Shown in pieces: positions 996 to 12,014 of a stretch of DNA of 27,591 bases. Origin of the DNA: a virus. Location of the stretch: the UHGV virus genome UHGV-0217794; one strand, given 5' to 3'. The number at the start of each line of letters is the position of its first letter. Within the stretch, counting starts at the first letter, position 1. The notes beneath the pieces are model-generated. The model ran no database searches. It was not told the origin of the DNA and worked only from the letters and a program-made list of their open reading frames with translations. A program made the position numbers and the translations under genes.

Positions 996-1040
996 TTGAC
1001 TTAGGTATCCCGCGCACAATAATGTTAGAAAAGTCTAACA
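996..1040 (+). promoter_or_regulatory. rightward early promoter (-35 TTGACT 996-1001, -10 AATAAT 1018-1023) overlapped by operator palindrome TGTTAGA-aaag-TCTAACA (1023-1040)
   Basis: Near-consensus sigma70 hexamers with 16-nt spacer immediately upstream of the dicC-like gene; perfect 7-bp half-site inverted repeat overlapping the -10/+1 region. Confidence 0.6.
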
Positions 1041-1053
1041 AGAGGGGGCTTTG

Positions 1054-1281
1054 ATGCTTAAAGTTGACGCAATTACTTTTTTTGGCAGCAAAACAAAGCT
1101 TGCCAATGCCGCAGGAGTGAGACTGGCAAGTGTTGCTGCTTGGGGGATACTGGTTCCTGAAGGTCGCGCGATGCGTCTACAGGAGGCATCTGGCGGGGAG
1201 CTTCAGTATGATCCCAAAGTTTATGACGAATATCGTAAGACGAAGCGGGCGGGGCGGTTGAACAATGAAAATCACTCCTGA
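1054..1281 (+). CDS. dicC: Cro-like regulator, DicC-like (75 aa from ATG 1054)
   Basis: FFGSKTKLANAAGVRLASVAAW ... GRAMRLQEASGGELQYDPKVYDEYRK matches my recollection of E. coli DicC; divergently transcribed from the repressor; AGAGGGGG RBS upstream. Confidence 0.85.
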   Translation: MLKVDAITFFGSKTKLANAAGVRLASVAAWGILVPEGRAMRLQEASGGELQYDPKVYDEYRKTKRAGRLNNENHS

Positions 1282-1786
1282 ACAGGCTCGTGAGGCTCTG
1301 GATGCCTGGATATGTCGACCAGGAATGACACAGGAGCAGGCGACGATATTAATCACTGAAGCATTCTGGGCTTTGAAAGAGCGCCCGAACATCGATGTTC
1401 AGCGTGTCACATATGAAGGTGGCGCGGTTGATCAGCGAGCGCTTAGCGTTAATCGAGTGAAGATATTCGAACGCTGGAAGGCTATCGACACCAGGGATAA
1501 GTGTGAAAAGTTCACAGCGCTAGTGCCTGCAATTATGGAGGCTATCCGGATTAGTGATTTCAGGTTGTATCGTGAGATCAGTGATGGTAAAAGTATTACG
1601 TACATGATCGCCGGGTTAAATAAAGAATATGGCGATGTGGTGGAATCCGGACTGCTTTTTGCAGATCCTGCCGTTGTAGATCGTGAAACTGACGAACTTA
1701 TAGAAAAAGCAATTGCTTTCAAGCTTGCGTATCGACAGCAATACCAACAAAAAGCTGGATGGAATTATGAGTCTTCTTTTTGCTGA
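1265..1786 (+). CDS. putative early regulatory protein (YdaT/CII-like by position), 173 aa
   Basis: ORF overlapping the dicC-like stop, occupying the slot right after the cro-like gene; family assignment is by position and weak resemblance only. Confidence 0.4.
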   Translation: MKITPEQAREALDAWICRPGMTQEQATILITEAFWALKERPNIDVQRVTYEGGAVDQRALSVNRVKIFERWKAIDTRDKCEKFTALVPAIMEAIRISDFRLYREISDGKSITYMIAGLNKEYGDVVESGLLFADPAVVDRETDELIEKAIAFKLAYRQQYQQKAGWNYESSFC

Positions 1787-2732
1787 ACGCCCACTGGTTA
1801 TAAACACGCAGCTGGCAATGAAAATCGGCTTAAACGAAGCCATTGTTTTGCAACAACTGCACTACTGGTTGAGAGATACCAACTCCGGTATGGAATGTGA
1901 TGGTGTTCGCTGGATTTATAACACAACGGAACAATGGCTGGAACAGTTCCCATTCTGGTCAGAGTCAACGTTAAAGCGCGCGTTTGCAAGTCTGAAAACG
2001 CTGGGGCTTTTGCGTTGTGAAAAGCTCAATAAATCAAAGCGCGATATGACCAATTTCTACACGATCAACTATGGGAGCGAGCTTTTAGATGGTGGCAAAT
2101 TGAACGAATCCATCGGTTCAAAATGCGCTGCTCCATCAGGTCAAAATGACACGATGGAAGAGGTCAAAATGAAACGCTCCATTGGTTCAAAACGATCCAA
2201 TGTCATCGGGTCAAAATGGCCTGATGATCTTACAGAGAATACAACAGAGATTACTACAGAGAATAAAAACACTTTTCGTCCGGAAGCTTCGCAACCGGAC
2301 CCGCAGACGACTGAACAGGATTTTTTAACCCGGAACTCCGACGCGGTTGTGTTTAGTGCGAAAAAACGCCAGTGGGGTAGCAGGGAGGATTTGGCGTGTG
2401 CGCAGTGGATCTGGGGGCGGATCGTGGGTCTCTACGAACAGGCAGCCAGTGATGATGGCGAGATCATGCGACCAAAAGAGCCTAACTGGACTGCCTGGGC
2501 CAATGACGTGCGCACAATGCGGATGCTGGATGGCAGAAGCCACAGACAAATTTGCGAAATGTTTGGTCGGGTTCAGCGAGATCCATTCTGGGTAAAAAAC
2601 ATCATGAGCCCGTCAAAGCTCCGCGAAAAATGGGACGAACTGGTCATCCGCCTGGGACGTTCACCTGTACAGCGTTGTGTTAATCATATTTCTGAACCGG
2701 ATACAGAAATTCCGCCTGGTTTCAGAGGATAA
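1767..2732 (+). CDS. replication initiator / replisome organizer (O-like N-terminal domain, DnaT-like C-terminal region), about 321 aa from ATG 1767
   Basis: N-terminal PLVINTQLAMKIGLNEAIVLQQLHYWL motif typical of phage replisome-organizer N-domains; internal direct DNA repeats (iterons) inside the coding sequence; C-terminal RDPFWVKNIMSPSKLREKWDELV resembles DnaT-type C-termini. Confidence 0.7.
   Translation: MSLLFAERPLVINTQLAMKIGLNEAIVLQQLHYWLRDTNSGMECDGVRWIYNTTEQWLEQFPFWSESTLKRAFASLKTLGLLRCEKLNKSKRDMTNFYTINYGSELLDGGKLNESIGSKCAAPSGQNDTMEEVKMKRSIGSKRSNVIGSKWPDDLTENTTEITTENKNTFRPEASQPDPQTTEQDFLTRNSDAVVFSAKKRQWGSREDLACAQWIWGRIVGLYEQAASDDGEIMRPKEPNWTAWANDVRTMRMLDGRSHRQICEMFGRVQRDPFWVKNIMSPSKLREKWDELVIRLGRSPVQRCVNHISEPDTEIPPGFRG
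2112..2275. repeat. putative origin of replication: five direct iterons (core GGT(T)CAAAA(T/C)G at about 2115, 2139, 2162, 2184, 2208; roughly 23-bp period) followed by an A-rich tract with three ACAGAGA repeats (2231-2275)
   Basis: Repeats read directly from the sequence; they sit inside the initiator gene and encode a repeated IGSK peptide, as ori-lambda sits inside gene O. Confidence 0.6.
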
Positions 2733-2772
2733 GTGTTGATTTCAGGTCATGAGGTAATTTTAAGGGGGACTT

Positions 2773-3264
2773 GTGGCAAAAGTTTTTACACAAGAAGAGC
2801 GGGAAAAAATTAAAGGGCAGGTGGTGGAACTCGTGCGCCAGAGCGGTCGTGAGACGTTACGGCAACTGGAAGCTAAAACAGGTGCGACTAGATATCTGAT
2901 GAGCGTTCTTGCCAGAGAGCTGGTAGCCAGTGGCGATGTATACAACTCCGGCTACGGGTTATTCCCGTCTGAACAGGCGCGTAAGGACTGGCAACACGCC
3001 CGCAAAAAACTCTCGAGGGCAAAGGTGAAGAAACCTGCTGTGGTTGATCCGGACCTTATCTGGTCATTACCTGACGGAGAAATACGCCGCTACGACAGTC
3101 GCCTAAACATAATCTGTCGCGAGTGCCGGAAGACTGAAGTTATGCAGCGTATACTCGCATTCTATCAGGGAAATGTTCGATATCTATTGAAGCGACGAGT
3201 AGCGCGCAGGGATAAGAGGGATGGTCCCTTAAAGGGGAGAGCTAATTATCCGGAAGGATTCTGA
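2773..3264 (+). CDS. hypothetical protein, 163 aa (GTG start)
   Basis: ORF with AAGGGGGA RBS upstream of GTG 2773; no recognisable family; sits where a helicase loader (P/DnaC-like) would be in lambda. Confidence 0.55.
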   Translation: MAKVFTQEEREKIKGQVVELVRQSGRETLRQLEAKTGATRYLMSVLARELVASGDVYNSGYGLFPSEQARKDWQHARKKLSRAKVKKPAVVDPDLIWSLPDGEIRRYDSRLNIICRECRKTEVMQRILAFYQGNVRYLLKRRVARRDKRDGPLKGRANYPEGF

Positions 3265-3515
3265 TGATGAACATCGAAGAACTGCGTAAAATTTTTTGTG
3301 AAGATGGCCTCTATGCTGTGTGCGTTGAAAATGGAAATCTTGTTAGTCATTACCGCATTATGTGTTTGCGAAAGAATGGGGCTGCGTTAATTAATTTTGT
3401 GGATGGTCGAGTGACAGACGGATTTATCTTGCGCGAAGGTGAGTTTGTCACTTCATTACAGGCACTGAAAGAGATCGGAATAAAAGCAGGCTTTTCAGCT
3501 TTTGCAGAAGAATAA
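3264..3515 (+). CDS. hypothetical small protein, 83 aa
   Basis: ATG overlaps the upstream stop (TGATG), suggesting translational coupling; no recognisable family. Confidence 0.5.
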   Translation: MMNIEELRKIFCEDGLYAVCVENGNLVSHYRIMCLRKNGAALINFVDGRVTDGFILREGEFVTSLQALKEIGIKAGFSAFAEE

Positions 3516-3581
3516 ACTCATCTACAATCTTGCGCGGGGCTGAACTCCCGCTGAGTAACACCGTGCCACCGGAGAAAACCG

Positions 3582-3860
3582 ATGGCACGCAACGTAAAAT
3601 ATTACAATTCTGATAATTCGCCCGTTCTTGCCTGCACGCACGAGCGGTATTCTCACGCATTCAAGTCTGAATGGTTCCAGCACCCTCCATGCACTGAAGA
3701 GCAGGCTGAATGGATAATTCAGTGTTACCGCAGGCGCGGATACGAGGTTAAGAAAGCCCTTAGTCTCGACTACCGTCACTGGATAATCTCAGTCAGATTG
3801 CCTTACTCCGAACGCCCACCGCGTCCGTCCCGTACATTCCAGCAACGCATCTGGAGGTAA
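3582..3860 (+). CDS. hypothetical small protein, 92 aa
   Basis: ATG 3582 with GGAGA RBS 6 nt upstream; no recognisable family. Confidence 0.5.
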   Translation: MARNVKYYNSDNSPVLACTHERYSHAFKSEWFQHPPCTEEQAEWIIQCYRRRGYEVKKALSLDYRHWIISVRLPYSERPPRPSRTFQQRIWR

Positions 3861-3861
3861 C

Positions 3862-4911
3862 GTGCGGGTATTACTTCGACCTGTTCTGGTACCGGAACTC
3901 GGGCTGGTGGTCGTTAAGCCGGGCCGTGAATCCATGCCGGTATTCCACAATACCCGGTTACTGGTGGAGCCGGAACCGAAAAGCATGCGTAATCTGCCGT
4001 CCGGGGTCGTTCCTGCCGCTCGCCAGCCGCTGGTGGAAGACAAAACATTGCTGCCGTTTTTCAGTAACGCACGGGTGATTCGTGCTGCTGGTGGTGCTGG
4101 TGCATTGTCTGACTGGCTGTTGCGCCATATTAAATCCTGCCAGTGGCCACACGGCGATTATCATCACAGCGAAACCGTCATTCACCGTTATGGTACCGGC
4201 GCAATGGTGTTGTGCTGGCACTGCGACAACCAACTGCGTGACCAGACATCCGAATCACTCGAGCAACTTGCTCATCAAAACCTGTCAGCATGGATGATTG
4301 ACGTCATCGGTCACGCAATAAGCGGTACGCAGGAGCGTGAATTATCTCTGGCTGAATTATCCTGGTGGGCGGTCCGCAATCAGGTGGCGGACGCGCTACC
4401 GGAAGCGGTATTACGTCGTTCGCTGGGGTTGCGTGCGGAAAAAATCCGCTCAATGTACCGTGAAAGCGACATCGTACCGGGAGAGCAGACCGCCACCAGC
4501 ATACTGAAACAGCGCACAAAAAATCTTGCACTGTTGCCTCACGCCCACCAGGAACAACACCCACTACAGGAAAAGACGGTGGTAAGCATTGCCGTTGATC
4601 CTGAGTCTCCGGAATCTTTTATGAAACGACCTAAACGTCGCCGCTGGGTTAACGAGAAATACACACGCTGGGTGAAGACACAGCCGTGTGCGTGTTGTGG
4701 TAAGCCAGCCGACGATCCCCATCACCTGATTGGTCATGGTCAGGGCGGAATGGGGACAAAATCTCACGATATTTTCACGCTACCGCTGTGTCGGGAGCAT
4801 CACAACGAGCTTCATGCGGATCCGCTGGCGTTCGAAGAAAAGCATGGTTCTCAGGTTGATTTAATCTTTCGTTTTCTTGATCACGCCTTTGCAACTGGCG
4901 TGCTTGGGTAA
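3862..4911 (+). CDS. DUF968/YdfU-like protein with C-terminal Cys/His (HNH-like) motif, 349 aa
   Basis: C-terminus CACCGKPADDPHHLIGHGQGGMGTKSHDIFTLPLCREHHNELH; same size and position as Qin prophage YdfU (before rusA and Q); GTG start with GGAGG RBS. Confidence 0.65.
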   Translation: MRVLLRPVLVPELGLVVVKPGRESMPVFHNTRLLVEPEPKSMRNLPSGVVPAARQPLVEDKTLLPFFSNARVIRAAGGAGALSDWLLRHIKSCQWPHGDYHHSETVIHRYGTGAMVLCWHCDNQLRDQTSESLEQLAHQNLSAWMIDVIGHAISGTQERELSLAELSWWAVRNQVADALPEAVLRRSLGLRAEKIRSMYRESDIVPGEQTATSILKQRTKNLALLPHAHQEQHPLQEKTVVSIAVDPESPESFMKRPKRRRWVNEKYTRWVKTQPCACCGKPADDPHHLIGHGQGGMGTKSHDIFTLPLCREHHNELHADPLAFEEKHGSQVDLIFRFLDHAFATGVLG

Positions 4912-6259: not shown

Positions 6260-6335
6260 GGCCCTTTAGCTCAGTGGTGAGAGCGAGCGACTCATAATCG
6301 CCAGGTCGCTGGTTCAAATCCAGCAAGGGCCACCA
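6260..6335 (+). tRNA. ileZ: tRNA with CAU anticodon, most likely tRNA-Ile2 (lysidine-modified, reads AUA; ileX/ileZ-like); elongator tRNA-Met not excluded
   Basis: 76-nt cloverleaf: acceptor GGCCCTT/AAGGGCC, D-arm GCTCAGTGGTGAGAGC, anticodon loop CTCATAA, T-arm GCTGGTTCAAATCCAGC, 3' ACCA; close to my recollection of E. coli ileX. Confidence 0.85.
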
Positions 6336-6435: not shown

Positions 6436-6512
6436 GCGTTGTTAGCTCAGCCGGACAGAGCAATTGCCTTCTAAGCAATCGGTCACTAGTTCGAATCCAG
6501 TACAGCGCGCCA
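6436..6512 (+). tRNA. tRNA-Arg (anticodon UCU, reads AGA/AGG; argN/argO/argU-like)
   Basis: 77-nt cloverleaf: acceptor GCGTTGT/ACAGCGC, D-arm TAGCTCAGCCGGACAGAGC, anticodon loop with TCT, T-loop GTTCGAATCC, 3' GCCA; one mismatch in the T-stem. Confidence 0.8.
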
Positions 6513-6976: not shown

Positions 6977-7450
6977 ATACATATCTGGATTATCACCTGT
7001 TACGGTAAAAAGTTATTGCTTACTGTTTTTGTGAATGGCATTGCAGCAGCCGGATAATGTCAGTGCTGGCTGACGGTGTGCTGGTGGCGGGTGTGGTGGT
7101 TATTGCTTTCCCGTTGCTGAAAAAGAAAACGCCAGACTGTTAGCCGGGTATCAGTTAGCGGGAGAAATTTTTAAATACTTCACAATTCAGGCGGTTGACT
7201 GTTGTCTGGTTTGCGGGGAGTTTGTTAAAAGAAACTGGCATGGTGAATCCCCCTGTGCGGAGGGGCAATCAGCGAGTAGGTATATGGGATAATCGCGTAT
7301 TCAGGTGCTGGTACTGAATTCACCGGGAGGCACCCGGCACCATGCACTTCAATAGATTCTCTCCACATTATGGATATTCTTTCAGAATATCCCACGCAGA
7401 CTTTGTGTAAATGTTAACAAATGTGCGTTTTATTTGATCTGATTCGCTGT

Positions 7451-9643: not shown

Positions 9644-10177
9644 ATGAACGTAAAAGTCAAATACGGCCTGTCGGCTGCCGTTCTGGCGCTGATTGGTGCT
9701 GGTGCATCTGCTCCCCAGATACTTGACCAGTTTCTGGACGAAAAAGAAGGTAACCACACAATGGCATACCGTGATGGTTCCGGCATATGGACCATCTGTC
9801 GGGGTGCCACAGTGGTGGATGGAAAACCCGTTTTTCCCAATATGAAACTGTCGAAGGAAAAATGCGACCAGGTTAACGCTATTGAGCGTGATAAGGCTCT
9901 GGCATGGGTGGAGCGCAATATTAAAGTACCACTGACCGAACCACAAAAAGCGGGTATCGCGTCATTTTGTCCCTATAACATTGGCCCCGGTAAGTGTTTT
10001 CCGTCGACGTTTTATAAACGGCTGAATGCTGGTGATCGTAAAGGTGCATGCGAGGCGATTCGCTGGTGGATTAAGGACAGGGGGCGTGATTGCCGCATTC
10101 GTTCAAATAACTGTTACGGTCAGGTTATTCGTCGTGATCAGGAGAGCGCGTTAGTGTGCTGGGGGATCGACAGATAA
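9644..10177 (+). CDS. SAR endolysin (lysozyme, T4-lysozyme/R21-like with N-terminal signal-anchor-release domain)
   Basis: N-terminal Gly/Ala-rich weakly hydrophobic segment (GLSAAVLALIGAGASA) followed by a lysozyme-like domain; paired with a pinholin as in phage 21. Confidence 0.88.
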   Translation: MNVKVKYGLSAAVLALIGAGASAPQILDQFLDEKEGNHTMAYRDGSGIWTICRGATVVDGKPVFPNMKLSKEKCDQVNAIERDKALAWVERNIKVPLTEPQKAGIASFCPYNIGPGKCFPSTFYKRLNAGDRKGACEAIRWWIKDRGRDCRIRSNNCYGQVIRRDQESALVCWGIDR

Positions 10178-10940: not shown

Positions 10941-11257
10941 AAACCGGCCAAGGATAATCCGCTGAAGATTCGCCGGGGCTAGAGAGAGCCAAAGCTTTAA
11001 TTGACACCATTACTCATAGCAAGGCAATGCATCGTTTTTATGAGGTCAATAGATGCCTGATTTATTTCTGTGCTCCGTATCGTCGCTGTATTCCTTCGTT
11101 AACCATGAGTGTAGTCCGACGGGGAGCACGAGTGTATGGGAATAATAAAAAAAGATACACACCTGGGTTTACCGCTTTTATGCTTCGCGGGTTTGCTCTT
11201 CATGCAGCTAGTCCGGTACAGAGGTGTATGAAACCGGACTGCTGATTTAATTAATTC

Positions 11258-11662
11258 CTATATTAATGGTCTGTTATTTTCAACATCTTCCATGTACAAA
11301 AGATCGTGATCAAACGAATAGTAAAACCTTATGTTTTTATCTATATCTGTAATCCAGCGATAAACACCTGCTTTTGCTAAAGTGAGACGATATTGATGAA
11401 ATGTAGATTTACCTGATATAAGATTTCTGGCTGCTTCTTTAATTAATTCTGGTTTCTTTGATGTGCTAACTTTCACAAGTCCTCTACTGCCTCGAACTAA
11501 TAAAATATTATCATCATGAGTAATTAGTCTTATATTATCAGTAGCCAGATAATAAATATAATGCGCAATATTATGGCGTTTTAATTCGGAGTAAAACCAT
11601 GGGAAGTATAAATTACTTCTAACGTGTTCGAATATCTCTTGAAAAATATCTGCCTGCTCCAT
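11258..11662 (-). CDS. hypothetical protein, reverse-oriented moron at the bor-equivalent locus (134 aa from ATG 11662)
   Basis: Opposite strand to all flanking late genes; visibly AT-rich (not computed); AAGAGGA Shine-Dalgarno upstream of ATG; aromatic-rich sequence with no family I recognise. Confidence 0.6.
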   Translation of the reverse strand: MEQADIFQEIFEHVRSNLYFPWFYSELKRHNIAHYIYYLATDNIRLITHDDNILLVRGSRGLVKVSTSKKPELIKEAARNLISGKSTFHQYRLTLAKAGVYRWITDIDKNIRFYYSFDHDLLYMEDVENNRPLI

Positions 11663-11817
11663 CAGGAAATATCCTCTTGTCACTGCTACTTCTTACCATG
11701 AGCTTAGATAGTTTGCATGATTTGTTCTCTCACATCAATCTGATCCGACCTCATTGAGGTGGGCGTTGTGAATACCTGATAAGAAATGTGGGTCCTCCCA
11801 ATGGGGGAGGCTGGCAC

Positions 11818-11829
11818 GGGGCGGGAGCG
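11818..11829. other. candidate cos (cohesive end) site, cosN-like
   Basis: GGGTCCT ... ACG-GGGCGGGAGCGT-CGCGG resembles the lambda right-end/cosN context (GGGTCCTTTCCGG ... ACG-GGGCGGCGACCT-CGCGG) as I recall it; about 190 bp upstream of the small terminase gene. Confidence 0.4.
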
Positions 11830-12014
11830 TCGCGGAAAAAGGCTAGTTTTTGCATTTCCATGGCGGCGGCAGCATGTTTGGTAATTTATTGATAATTAAA
11901 AGTTATTTCCCTTTTCACCTGTACAATATTTTTTTCTTCCTGTCATTAGACCAGTTTGCAATTAATTGAAATATATAAATAAACCTGATTTTCACCTGCC
12001 AGATGGAGTTGCTT

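Follow-up and report, generated by a model that had tools for sequence, protein, structure and literature searches.

The DNA analysed here, referred to as the window, is a 27,591-nucleotide stretch of the virus genome UHGV-0217794. It is a Qin/DicA-type lambdoid prophage of E. coli, and this report concerns its replication module, in which a 321-residue initiator is followed by three small genes. Read rightward, the order is a DicA-like repressor on the minus strand, a pR-like promoter, DicC/Cro-like and YdaT/CII-like genes, the initiator, DUF977, rem and a 92-aa gene (Table 1). The region holds the entire replication module of a Qin/DicA-type lambdoid phage, in its "initiator only" form. A first-pass annotation of this DNA had given the four open reading frames (ORFs) as 1767–2732, 2773–3264, 3264–3515 and 3582–3860, and all four coordinates are right. 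The Escherichia phage HannyBb, a complete genome of 45,272 bp deposited as a phage from bird faeces, is 95–99% identical to the window over most of the window's length.

Table 1. Features of the replication module and its surroundings (window coordinates)
Feature	Position	Strand	Basis
DicA-like repressor	566–973	minus	
Putative pR-like promoter, TTGACT-16-AATAAT	996–1023	+	Consensus match only, 10/12
Cro/DicC-like regulator	1051–1281	+	Pfam P22_Cro 5e-12; relatives annotated Cro/CI family or DicC
YdaT/CII-like activator	1265–1786	+	Pfam YdaT_toxin 8.6e-05; PHROG 163 'CII-like' 1e-40
Replication initiator, 321 aa	1767–2732	+	PHROG 391 'replication initiation O-like' 1.4e-91
N-terminal winged-helix domain, predicted origin-binding, about residues 10–105	1794–2081	+	AlphaFold model, Foldseek, family profile
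Five iterons, core GGTCAAAATG, spacing 23/23/23/24 bp, presumed origin	2108–2226	+	Repeat search
A/T-rich stretch, about 45 bp, TACAGAGAATACAA ... TACAGAGAATAAAA, presumed unwinding region	2231–2276	+	Sequence reading, repeat family
Lambda-O-type C-terminal domain, residues 183–296	2313–2654	+	34–36% identity to lambda O about 130–270
DnaT-type C-terminal tail VQRCVNHISEPDTEIPPGFRG, residues 301–321	2667–2729	+	BLASTP to DnaT, PDB chains, NCBIfam DnaT
Spacer, initiator to DUF977	2733–2772	+	DUF977 starts 41 nt past the initiator stop; +41 spacing in 31 viral loci among the matches listed
DUF977/Ren-like ('LygF') gene proper	2773–3195	+	Pfam DUF977 4.6e-28; PHROG 142 1.6e-44
Read-through extension of the DUF977 ORF, 23 codons, into the rem leader	3196–3264	+	Alignment to L001 and HannyBb
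rem, 83 aa, homologue of Qin-prophage rem	3264–3515	+	100% DNA matches annotated 'rem: protein Rem' in many E. coli genomes
92-aa conserved hypothetical gene	3582–3860	+	PHROG 1212 5e-36
DUF968/HNH-type protein (YdfU-like), next nin-like gene	3862–4911	+	Pfam DUF968 4.6e-77; PHROG 96 'HNH endonuclease'

The initiator and its presumed internal origin

Residues 17–321 of the initiator match positions 11–298 of the 298-position PHROG 391 profile, which is its full length. The longest ORF opens at TTG 1713, and RefSeq relatives start at ATG 1767. The protein is 99.4% identical to the initiator of HannyBb, and its relatives are labelled 'phage replication protein O', 'Primosomal protein I' or 'hypothetical'.

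An AlphaFold model of the N-terminal domain contains helices at residues 14–78 and strands at 82–101. Its predicted local distance difference test score (pLDDT) is mostly 62–79 and falls to near 50 around residues 41–50 and 81–100. The best Foldseek matches are to the iteron-binding N-domain of staphylococcal plasmid RepA (4pql/5kbj, E 0.02, TM 0.55), and a family profile of the domain matches the N-terminal domain of DnaD (2v79/2vn2, E 0.003). The N-terminus is thus predicted by the model to be a DnaD/RepA_N-type winged helix. The first-pass annotation had called it O-like. BLASTP gave no alignment to lambda O residues 1–129 and Pfam gave no match for this domain; a lambda-O-like N-terminus was rejected because the similarity to lambda O is confined to initiator residues 142–294.

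These residues are 34% identical to lambda O 130–270, its linker and C-domain (BLASTP 1e-26; tblastn of the initiator against lambda, E 2e-16). A comparison with the lambda O C-domain had been suggested at the outset, and the two are homologous. The C-domain has 2844 relatives at E≤0.001 in the representative library. Its model is helical with a pLDDT of about 65–88, and no Pfam model matches it. In lambda, the C-terminal domain is the part of O that contacts P.

Both the iterons and the A/T-rich tract lie inside the initiator gene, the same layout as in ori-lambda; lambda has four iterons inside O, whereas the initiator gene of the window has five, of 23 bp. The iterons encode SIGSK peptide repeats within a disordered linker (pLDDT <30). 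Iteron matches with at most one mismatch all cluster at 2108–2226, except for one on the minus strand at 9963. By analogy with ori-lambda, the A/T-rich stretch is presumed to be the unwinding region. Its C-domain and origin layout place the initiator in the O-like family; its N-domain and partner do not.

A DnaT-type tail and the loaders that accompany it

The initiator ends in a tail (QRCVNHISEPDTEIPPGFRG) in which 14/20 residues are identical to E. coli DnaT residues 160–179 (pairwise BLASTP 4e-08). The tail also matches the PDB DnaT chains 2ru8, 6aep and 9zbt, and it includes the extreme C-terminal motif of DnaT. Outside the tail, no similarity to DnaT was found by pairwise BLASTP or three-way alignment, and neither the N-terminal oligomerisation domain of DnaT nor its acidic PriB-binding linker was encountered. 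The NCBIfam DnaT model scored the initiator at 16 bits against a cutoff of 201. The three-helix DNA-binding domain of DnaT in Pfam (PF17948, DnaT residues 89–154) is absent from the initiator, with a profile-profile probability of 0.1%, and DnaT was not among the results when a separate model of the C-domain (pLDDT 69) was used for fold searches. The initiator is not a member of the DnaT family, and only the tail is common to both. The DnaT-like C-terminal region proposed in the first-pass annotation therefore shrinks to the last 20 residues: the sequence match of the tail holds, whereas residues 142–294 are of lambda-O type and a DnaT-like fold found no support in the profile and structure comparisons.

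The DNA encoding the tail is identical to dnaT at 40/66 nucleotides (61%), and the residues are conserved. Recent capture of the tail from host dnaT was rejected on the basis of this low nucleotide identity. Retention of the residues while the nucleotides diverged suggests that the match reflects selection on the peptide. The motif IPxGFRG is nearly invariant in homologues at 70% identity, and the pLDDT of the tail is low in the models.

The same tail ends the Rac prophage protein YdaU, an unrelated DUF1376 initiator. Among the matches listed, tail-bearing proteins have bodies of six types: a lambda-O-type C-domain; DUF1376 (YdaU type); DUF1376 with the Pfam DnaT domain; an N-domain of unknown kind with the Pfam DnaT domain; HTH_36 with Phg_2220_C; and a sixth type without a Pfam match. 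The tail is a portable module found on at least five unrelated initiator architectures, and it is a candidate DnaC/DnaB-recruiting peptide. All organism-named representatives that bear it come from Enterobacterales, which fits a lineage-specific partner.

Proteins with the O-type C-domain (P0121–P0269) have C-termini that fall into a few recurring motif classes: IPxGFRG; LDxxNTDW..G..; HWNSxEAWENTL / WNTEEGWRGML; ..G[IV]xVPxGEVxL; and QDYRAGxxPDGSF. The first three (IPxGFRG, NTDW and HWNS/WNTEEGW) are tied to a loader type. A genuine Pfam DnaT DNA-binding domain together with the tail occurs in viral contigs L043, L063 and L083 (271 aa), L010 and L122 (276 aa), and L035 and L091 (137–139 aa). 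The 137–139-aa proteins are followed by a DnaC-like ORF, and no DnaC-like gene lies within 3 kb of the 271-aa class. Some proteins with the Pfam DnaT domain and the tail are fused to DUF1376 and followed by DnaC-like genes, making them phage-borne DnaT-DnaC-like pairs. A 90%-identity protein cluster (cluster 8, P0124), represented by a 323-aa tail-bearing initiator, also holds many 242–246-aa entries named 'DnaC / ATP-binding protein'. This mixture probably arose in the clustering, because gene calls are fused or overlap where the initiator meets dnaC.

The window encodes no recognisable helicase loader. When E. coli DnaC, Rac YdaV, lambda P and E. coli DnaB were compared with the whole 27.6-kb window by tblastn, nothing was found at E≤1 save a chance-level lambda P segment (E 0.15). 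No PF06992 or other P-type loader gene lies downstream of the initiator in the window, and the small ORFs matched no P, DnaC, DnaB or other replication family in Pfam, PHROG or NCBIfam, nor an AAA+ domain like that of DnaC or YdaV. Here the first-pass annotation was correct: no P-, DnaC- or DnaB-like gene follows the initiator. DnaC, P and DnaB homologues are likewise absent from the whole HannyBb genome and from the complete 39,758-bp genome of the SfV-like Shigella phage VIT_AJPSC, which has a related initiator. The isolate status and plaque-forming ability of these two phages rest on database records.

The module itself is ordinary. A junction of the initiator 3' end, a 41-nt spacer and the DUF977 5' end is contiguous in 1873/5426 complete E. 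coli genomes, about one third, and annotation pipelines already label the module 'replication protein O' or 'primosomal protein I'. The loader-less form is also present in the phage records HannyBb, mEp460_ev081 and Tritos; the mEp460_ev081 initiator is annotated 'Primosomal protein I'. The loader-less state is taken to be natural because its arrangement recurs in one of every three complete E. coli genomes and in phages with deposited genomes, and by these comparisons the module appears functional.

IMG/VR was scanned for D[ST]xIPPGFRG followed by a stop, which gave at least 120 loci. Downstream genes were counted in the 99 listed loci with at least 900 nt of downstream sequence. Among the matches listed, a DnaC-like ORF, 50% identical to host DnaC, starts 7 nt after the stop of the tail-bearing protein in 59/99 loci, and DUF977 stands at +41 without DnaC in 31/99. 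None of the 119 listed tail loci has a P-like or DnaB-like ORF anywhere in the locus. In a further 80 SfV-like loci, which carry the variant tail ..DYSQIPAGFRG, the 2.5 kb downstream contain no DnaC-, P- or DnaB-like ORF, so that P or DnaB accompanies the tail in 0/199 loci combined. As a control, P comes after initiators with lambda-type tails (..NTDWIYGVDL) in 75/76 loci, and likewise in mEp237, Stx phage ST2-8624 and L295. The HWNSAEAWENTL tail class is followed by a Pfam P-family gene. One P-like ORF overlaps its initiator by more than 60 nt. A search with a diverse C-domain alignment gave close relatives only, and the other tail classes were sampled by separate queries and from phage records.

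Near-identical 325-aa initiators with identical tails exist both with and without a cassette of a DnaC-like gene and DUF1627. When loci L023 and L024 were compared, homology stopped at the initiator stop and resumed about 10 nt before the DUF977 start. The L023 cassette is a clean 1.5-kb segment (initiator stop +7 to +1545) encoding a DnaC-like protein of 248 aa and a DUF1627 protein of 256 aa. Since sister phages insert a DnaC homologue directly after the same initiator, a phage-borne loader is, judged from these loci, facultative in this group.

DUF1627, which has two helix-turn-helix (HTH)-like regions, always accompanies the longer form of the cassette. Other loader-less modules have a small ORF overlapping or just after the initiator stop, paralleling the positions of DUF977 and Ren. 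In the SfV-like loci (L213–L292) it is a PerC-like ORF of 164 aa after or overlapping the stop (e.g. L213 4439–4933), and in Klebsiella phage L209 a 131-aa ORF without a Pfam match occupies the DUF977-like position (3381–3776).

Small downstream genes and neighbourhood

The first-pass annotation had assigned none of the three small ORFs to a family. Profile searches place all three: DUF977/Ren-like, Rem and PHROG 1212. Residues 1–135 of the DUF977 protein match PF06163 positions 1–133 of 134. PHROG 142 is named 'Ren-like exclusion protein', phage records call the gene 'LygF', and its C-terminal motif N..CRECR...M.R.LA.Y is shared with lambda Ren. In this phage group, DUF977 occupies the position of Ren, after the replication genes; an exclusion role is putative. 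K-12 YdaW was dropped as a DUF977 reference, as it has no detectable similarity to the DUF977 of the window.

The full DUF977 ORF of the window (2773–3264) encodes 163 aa, as against 133–140 aa in relatives. Its stop codon is lost through TGA>CGA at 3193–3195. Window 1000–3199 aligns with 1501–3701 of the related contig L001, and from 3198 on the window continues in alignment with L001 from 6082. In HannyBb, the sequence corresponding to the extension is the non-coding leader ahead of rem. In relatives, about 2.4 kb of variable cargo plus hokD lies between DUF977 and rem, and the cargo may be an Sll1717-family P-loop ATPase, NUDIX and HAD hydrolases, or a 495-aa hypothetical protein. From these alignments, the length of the 163-aa ORF and its overlap with rem are attributed to a local deletion of about 2.4 kb (cargo and hokD). 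No complete E. coli genome shares the deletion junction. The 163-aa and 83-aa ORFs do overlap in TGATG, the ground on which they had been described as translationally coupled; this coupling is a local accident, not a design feature. The slot between DUF977 and hokD (L001 3697–6084; also L002 and L003), which together with hokD is missing from the window, resembles a moron or defence hot spot.

Rem belongs to PHROG 340, a family of unknown function, and is 100% identical in HannyBb. The 92-aa protein is also 100% identical in HannyBb and corresponds to RefSeq WP_023147795.1, a 'hypothetical protein' at the same position in relatives; it had no Pfam, NCBIfam or PADLOC match. The stop of its gene and the GTG start of the DUF968/HNH gene are 1 nt apart. 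These two genes (window 3860–3862) are tightly linked in relatives too (L001 6466–6744 and 6746–7795), unlike DUF977 and rem.

A loader hidden among the three ORFs, which the first-pass annotation had named as the finding that would overturn its proposal, received no support from Pfam, PHROG, NCBIfam or PADLOC. DUF977 is unlikely to stand in for a loader, since sister modules carry it alongside DnaC-like genes. All three small genes are accessory genes of known families, outside the loading machinery. Placement in a nin-like region stands, since the nin-like accessory region downstream includes rem and the 92-aa gene and, in relatives, a slot for variable cargo; the anti-defence or host-takeover functions suggested for the small genes gained nothing from PADLOC, which returned no matches.

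The pR-like promoter sits between the DicA-like repressor and the DicC/Cro-like gene, a position that fits pR, and heads the rightward early operon that contains the module. The 3' end of the YdaT/CII-like gene overlaps the initiator start by 20 nt. After the 92-aa gene come DUF968/HNH, RusA, Q, two tRNAs, lysis genes and structural genes. The tRNAs downstream of Q are tRNA-Met(CAT) (6260–6335), annotated in relatives as tRNA-Ile or tRNA-Met, and tRNA-Arg(TCT) (6436–6512). They are followed by a full-length, 108-bit match to the small RNA family STnc100 (7209–7399). In the late region, window 11001–12000 has a GC content of 38%, as against 44–58% elsewhere, and parts of the surrounding sequence (about 10.2–11.8 kb) have no match to HannyBb.

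Probable recruitment of the host helicase

The first-pass annotation had suggested that host DnaC/DnaB is recruited directly through the C-terminal region of the initiator. That suggestion is the best supported of those considered here, on comparative evidence, with the difference that the element is the 20-residue tail and not a DnaT-like domain. In the proposed scheme, the N-domain would bind the iterons and build an O-some-like complex, which would open the adjacent A/T-rich region as in lambda. The DnaT-type tail would then dock the host DnaB-DnaC complex, most likely through DnaC. DnaC is favoured as the partner because the type of tail changes with the type of loader, while all these phages share DnaB. 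The phage origin would thereby join helicase loading at the point where DnaT acts during replication restart; in lambda, the O tail together with P fills this role. The host dnaT-dnaC operon, in which 2 nt separate the two genes, likewise places a tail-bearing protein ahead of DnaC. According to published work, the way in which DnaB/DnaC is recruited by DnaT or the preprimosome is unknown (PMC13377028, PMC4132743). We consider it probable, though by no means assured, that this phage, which has no loader of its own, recruits host DnaB-DnaC via the DnaT-type tail of its initiator.

Several points weigh against this reading. A 2026 paper on the preprimosome speculates that the N-terminal domain of DnaT, not the tail, recruits DnaB/DnaC (PMC13377028). 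When DnaT is cut at residue 153, which removes residues 154–179, its Kd for single-stranded DNA (ssDNA) rises from 12.9 to 27.1 uM and the Hill coefficient, or cooperativity, is lower (PMC4132743). This halving of ssDNA affinity suggests that the tail could act on DNA rather than on protein. In bacteria without DnaC, DopC, which joins an O-like HTH to the DnaT C-terminal motif, is paired with a P-like loader (PMC5509034). The association counts hold many closely related loci, so that independent events are far fewer than 199, and loaders were detected by phmmer and tblastn with single reference proteins, which a very divergent or novel loader would escape. The left arm of the prophage is also missing from the window, though in HannyBb the genome is complete.

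The truncation result fits an alternative in which the tail binds PriA or PriB, feeding the origin to the PriA primosome, or aids ssDNA binding or oligomerisation, and the helicase is recruited otherwise, for example via the lambda-O-type C-domain. The C-domain of DnaT docks on PriA and filaments on ssDNA (PMC13377028), and truncation at 153 weakens ssDNA binding about two-fold (PMC4132743). The acidic-then-IPxGF make-up of the tail may also loosely recall the C-terminal tip of SSB, and its low pLDDT is expected of a linear motif with any partner. However, the tail occurs on C-domains unrelated to the DNA-binding domain of DnaT, which makes a role in DnaT filament geometry unlikely, and its strict pairing with a DnaC-type loader or none, and in no locus with P or DnaB, suggests that it acts at the loader step. 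PriA binding alone would not deliver DnaB-DnaC. We regard this alternative as unlikely, though it is the main rival of recruitment through DnaC. Less likely by far is that P/DnaC is replaced by one of the small downstream proteins, DUF977 being the most plausible, acting as a new helicase loader or adaptor about the size of SPP1 G39P or P2 B. Small non-AAA+ helicase loaders are known, DUF977 always lies directly downstream at +41, and other loader-less modules have a small HTH-type ORF there (PerC-like, 164 aa, in the SfV group; 131 aa in the Klebsiella phage). Yet DUF977 is equally present after DnaC-like genes in most of the 59 listed loci, it has the C-terminal motif and the position of lambda Ren, which follows P, and it matches no P, DnaC, DnaB or other replication family. 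Lambda Ren is dispensable for lambda replication. As for the remaining two ORFs, rem and the 92-aa gene are split from the module by the variable cargo slot in relatives, and the K-12 Qin prophage keeps rem and has presumably lost its replication genes.

The absence of a loader could also be a sign of decay, the module being the remnant of a cryptic prophage whose loader was deleted and which has ceased to replicate autonomously. The window has a clear local deletion (cargo and hokD) and a lost DUF977 stop, sister phages have a DnaC-like gene at the spacer, and the related PhiR42_1 record holds insertion sequence elements, for which reason it was set aside as evidence of a viable phage. Against decay, the identical 41-nt spacer is found in the 1873 complete E. 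coli genomes, in 31 viral contigs among the matches listed and in HannyBb, mEp460_ev081 and Tritos; HannyBb is 95–99% identical over most of the window; and the initiator ORF, the iterons and the tail are intact and conserved. Decay is in our view highly improbable. Just as little credence is given to a start without initiator-directed helicase loading, by transcription or R-loops with PriA, or by recombination through a phage exonuclease or recombinase, with the O-like protein mainly a regulator. It would account for the missing loader gene, and HannyBb-type genomes encode a large exodeoxyribonuclease VIII-like exonuclease in the left arm. The iterons, the intragenic A/T-rich tract and the O-type C-domain are, however, hallmarks of a theta-type lambdoid origin, and the conserved tail implies a protein partner under selection.

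A wider reading can be offered, tentatively and as a possibility that we would not yet count as probable. The sequence [ST]xPDxxIPxGFRG-COOH would be a missing link in E. coli replication restart, a portable docking element with which DnaT and at least five unrelated phage initiator families hand DnaB-DnaC to opened DNA. Initiator tails would form a 'partner code' in which the DnaT type selects DnaC and the NTDW and HWNS..W types select P, and the dnaT-dnaC operon would be a domesticated phage initiator-loader pair. A single peptide of 13–20 residues has been moved by evolution between host DnaT and several unrelated phage initiators. The data also suggest that phage origins are re-wired to different helicase-loading routes by tail swaps rather than by whole-domain changes. 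The phage comparison points to a specific, small and easily mutated candidate for the unexplained recruitment of DnaB-DnaC by DnaT, and the data would account for a large class of lambdoid phages that replicate with a single replication gene.

Loader-less lambdoid modules were reportedly termed 'initiator-solo' by Weigel and Seitz in FEMS Microbiol Rev in 2006. That type has an O-type initiator, an internal origin and no phage loader or helicase, and includes SfV-like Shigella phages. Nothing on a DnaT-type tail in phage initiators, or on its tie to loader-less modules, was found in the searchable literature, outside which the 2006 article of Weigel and Seitz falls.

Among known systems, lambda O-P resembles the module of the window in its position after cro and cII-like genes, in the internal iterons and A/T-rich tract in a disordered linker, in the homologous C-domain (34% over about 150 residues) and in the Ren-like gene after the replication genes. 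Unlike lambda, the window has no P gene, and the last 25 or so residues differ: lambda O ends in ..KPKLDLTNTDWIYGVDL, whereas the initiator of the window ends in the DnaT-type ..SEPDTEIPPGFRG. By this analogy, the module would work like lambda O-P with P replaced by the host loader.

YdaU of the Rac pair YdaU-YdaV ends in a DnaT-type tail (..VSLPDSAIPPGFRG), DUF977 follows in Rac relatives, and the regulatory neighbours are of the same kind (RacR/YdaS/YdaT in Rac; DicA-, DicC- and YdaT-like in the window). YdaU is, however, a DUF1376 protein with a different C-domain, and the DnaC homologue YdaV begins 7 nt later; the window has no DnaC homologue. The host pair DnaT-DnaC shares the C-terminal 20 residues and has the gene order seen in sister phages with a DnaC-type loader. 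The initiator differs from DnaT in lacking its N-terminal and Pfam DNA-binding domains. Furthermore, DnaT is recruited to forks by PriA/PriB (PMC13377028), whereas the initiator is a predicted origin binder with its own iterons. The DopC-DopE pair of Cellvibrionales and Oceanospirillales is alike in the fusion of an O-like N-terminal HTH to a DnaT C-terminal element (PMC5509034). DopC differs in that its gene is chromosomal and domesticated and has no iterons, in its pairing with a P-like loader, and in having a DnaT C-terminal domain (HHpred to 2ru8) instead of a lambda-O-type C-domain (PMC5509034). Its authors propose a role for DopC in handling the replicative helicase (Brezellec et al. 2017, PMC5509034).

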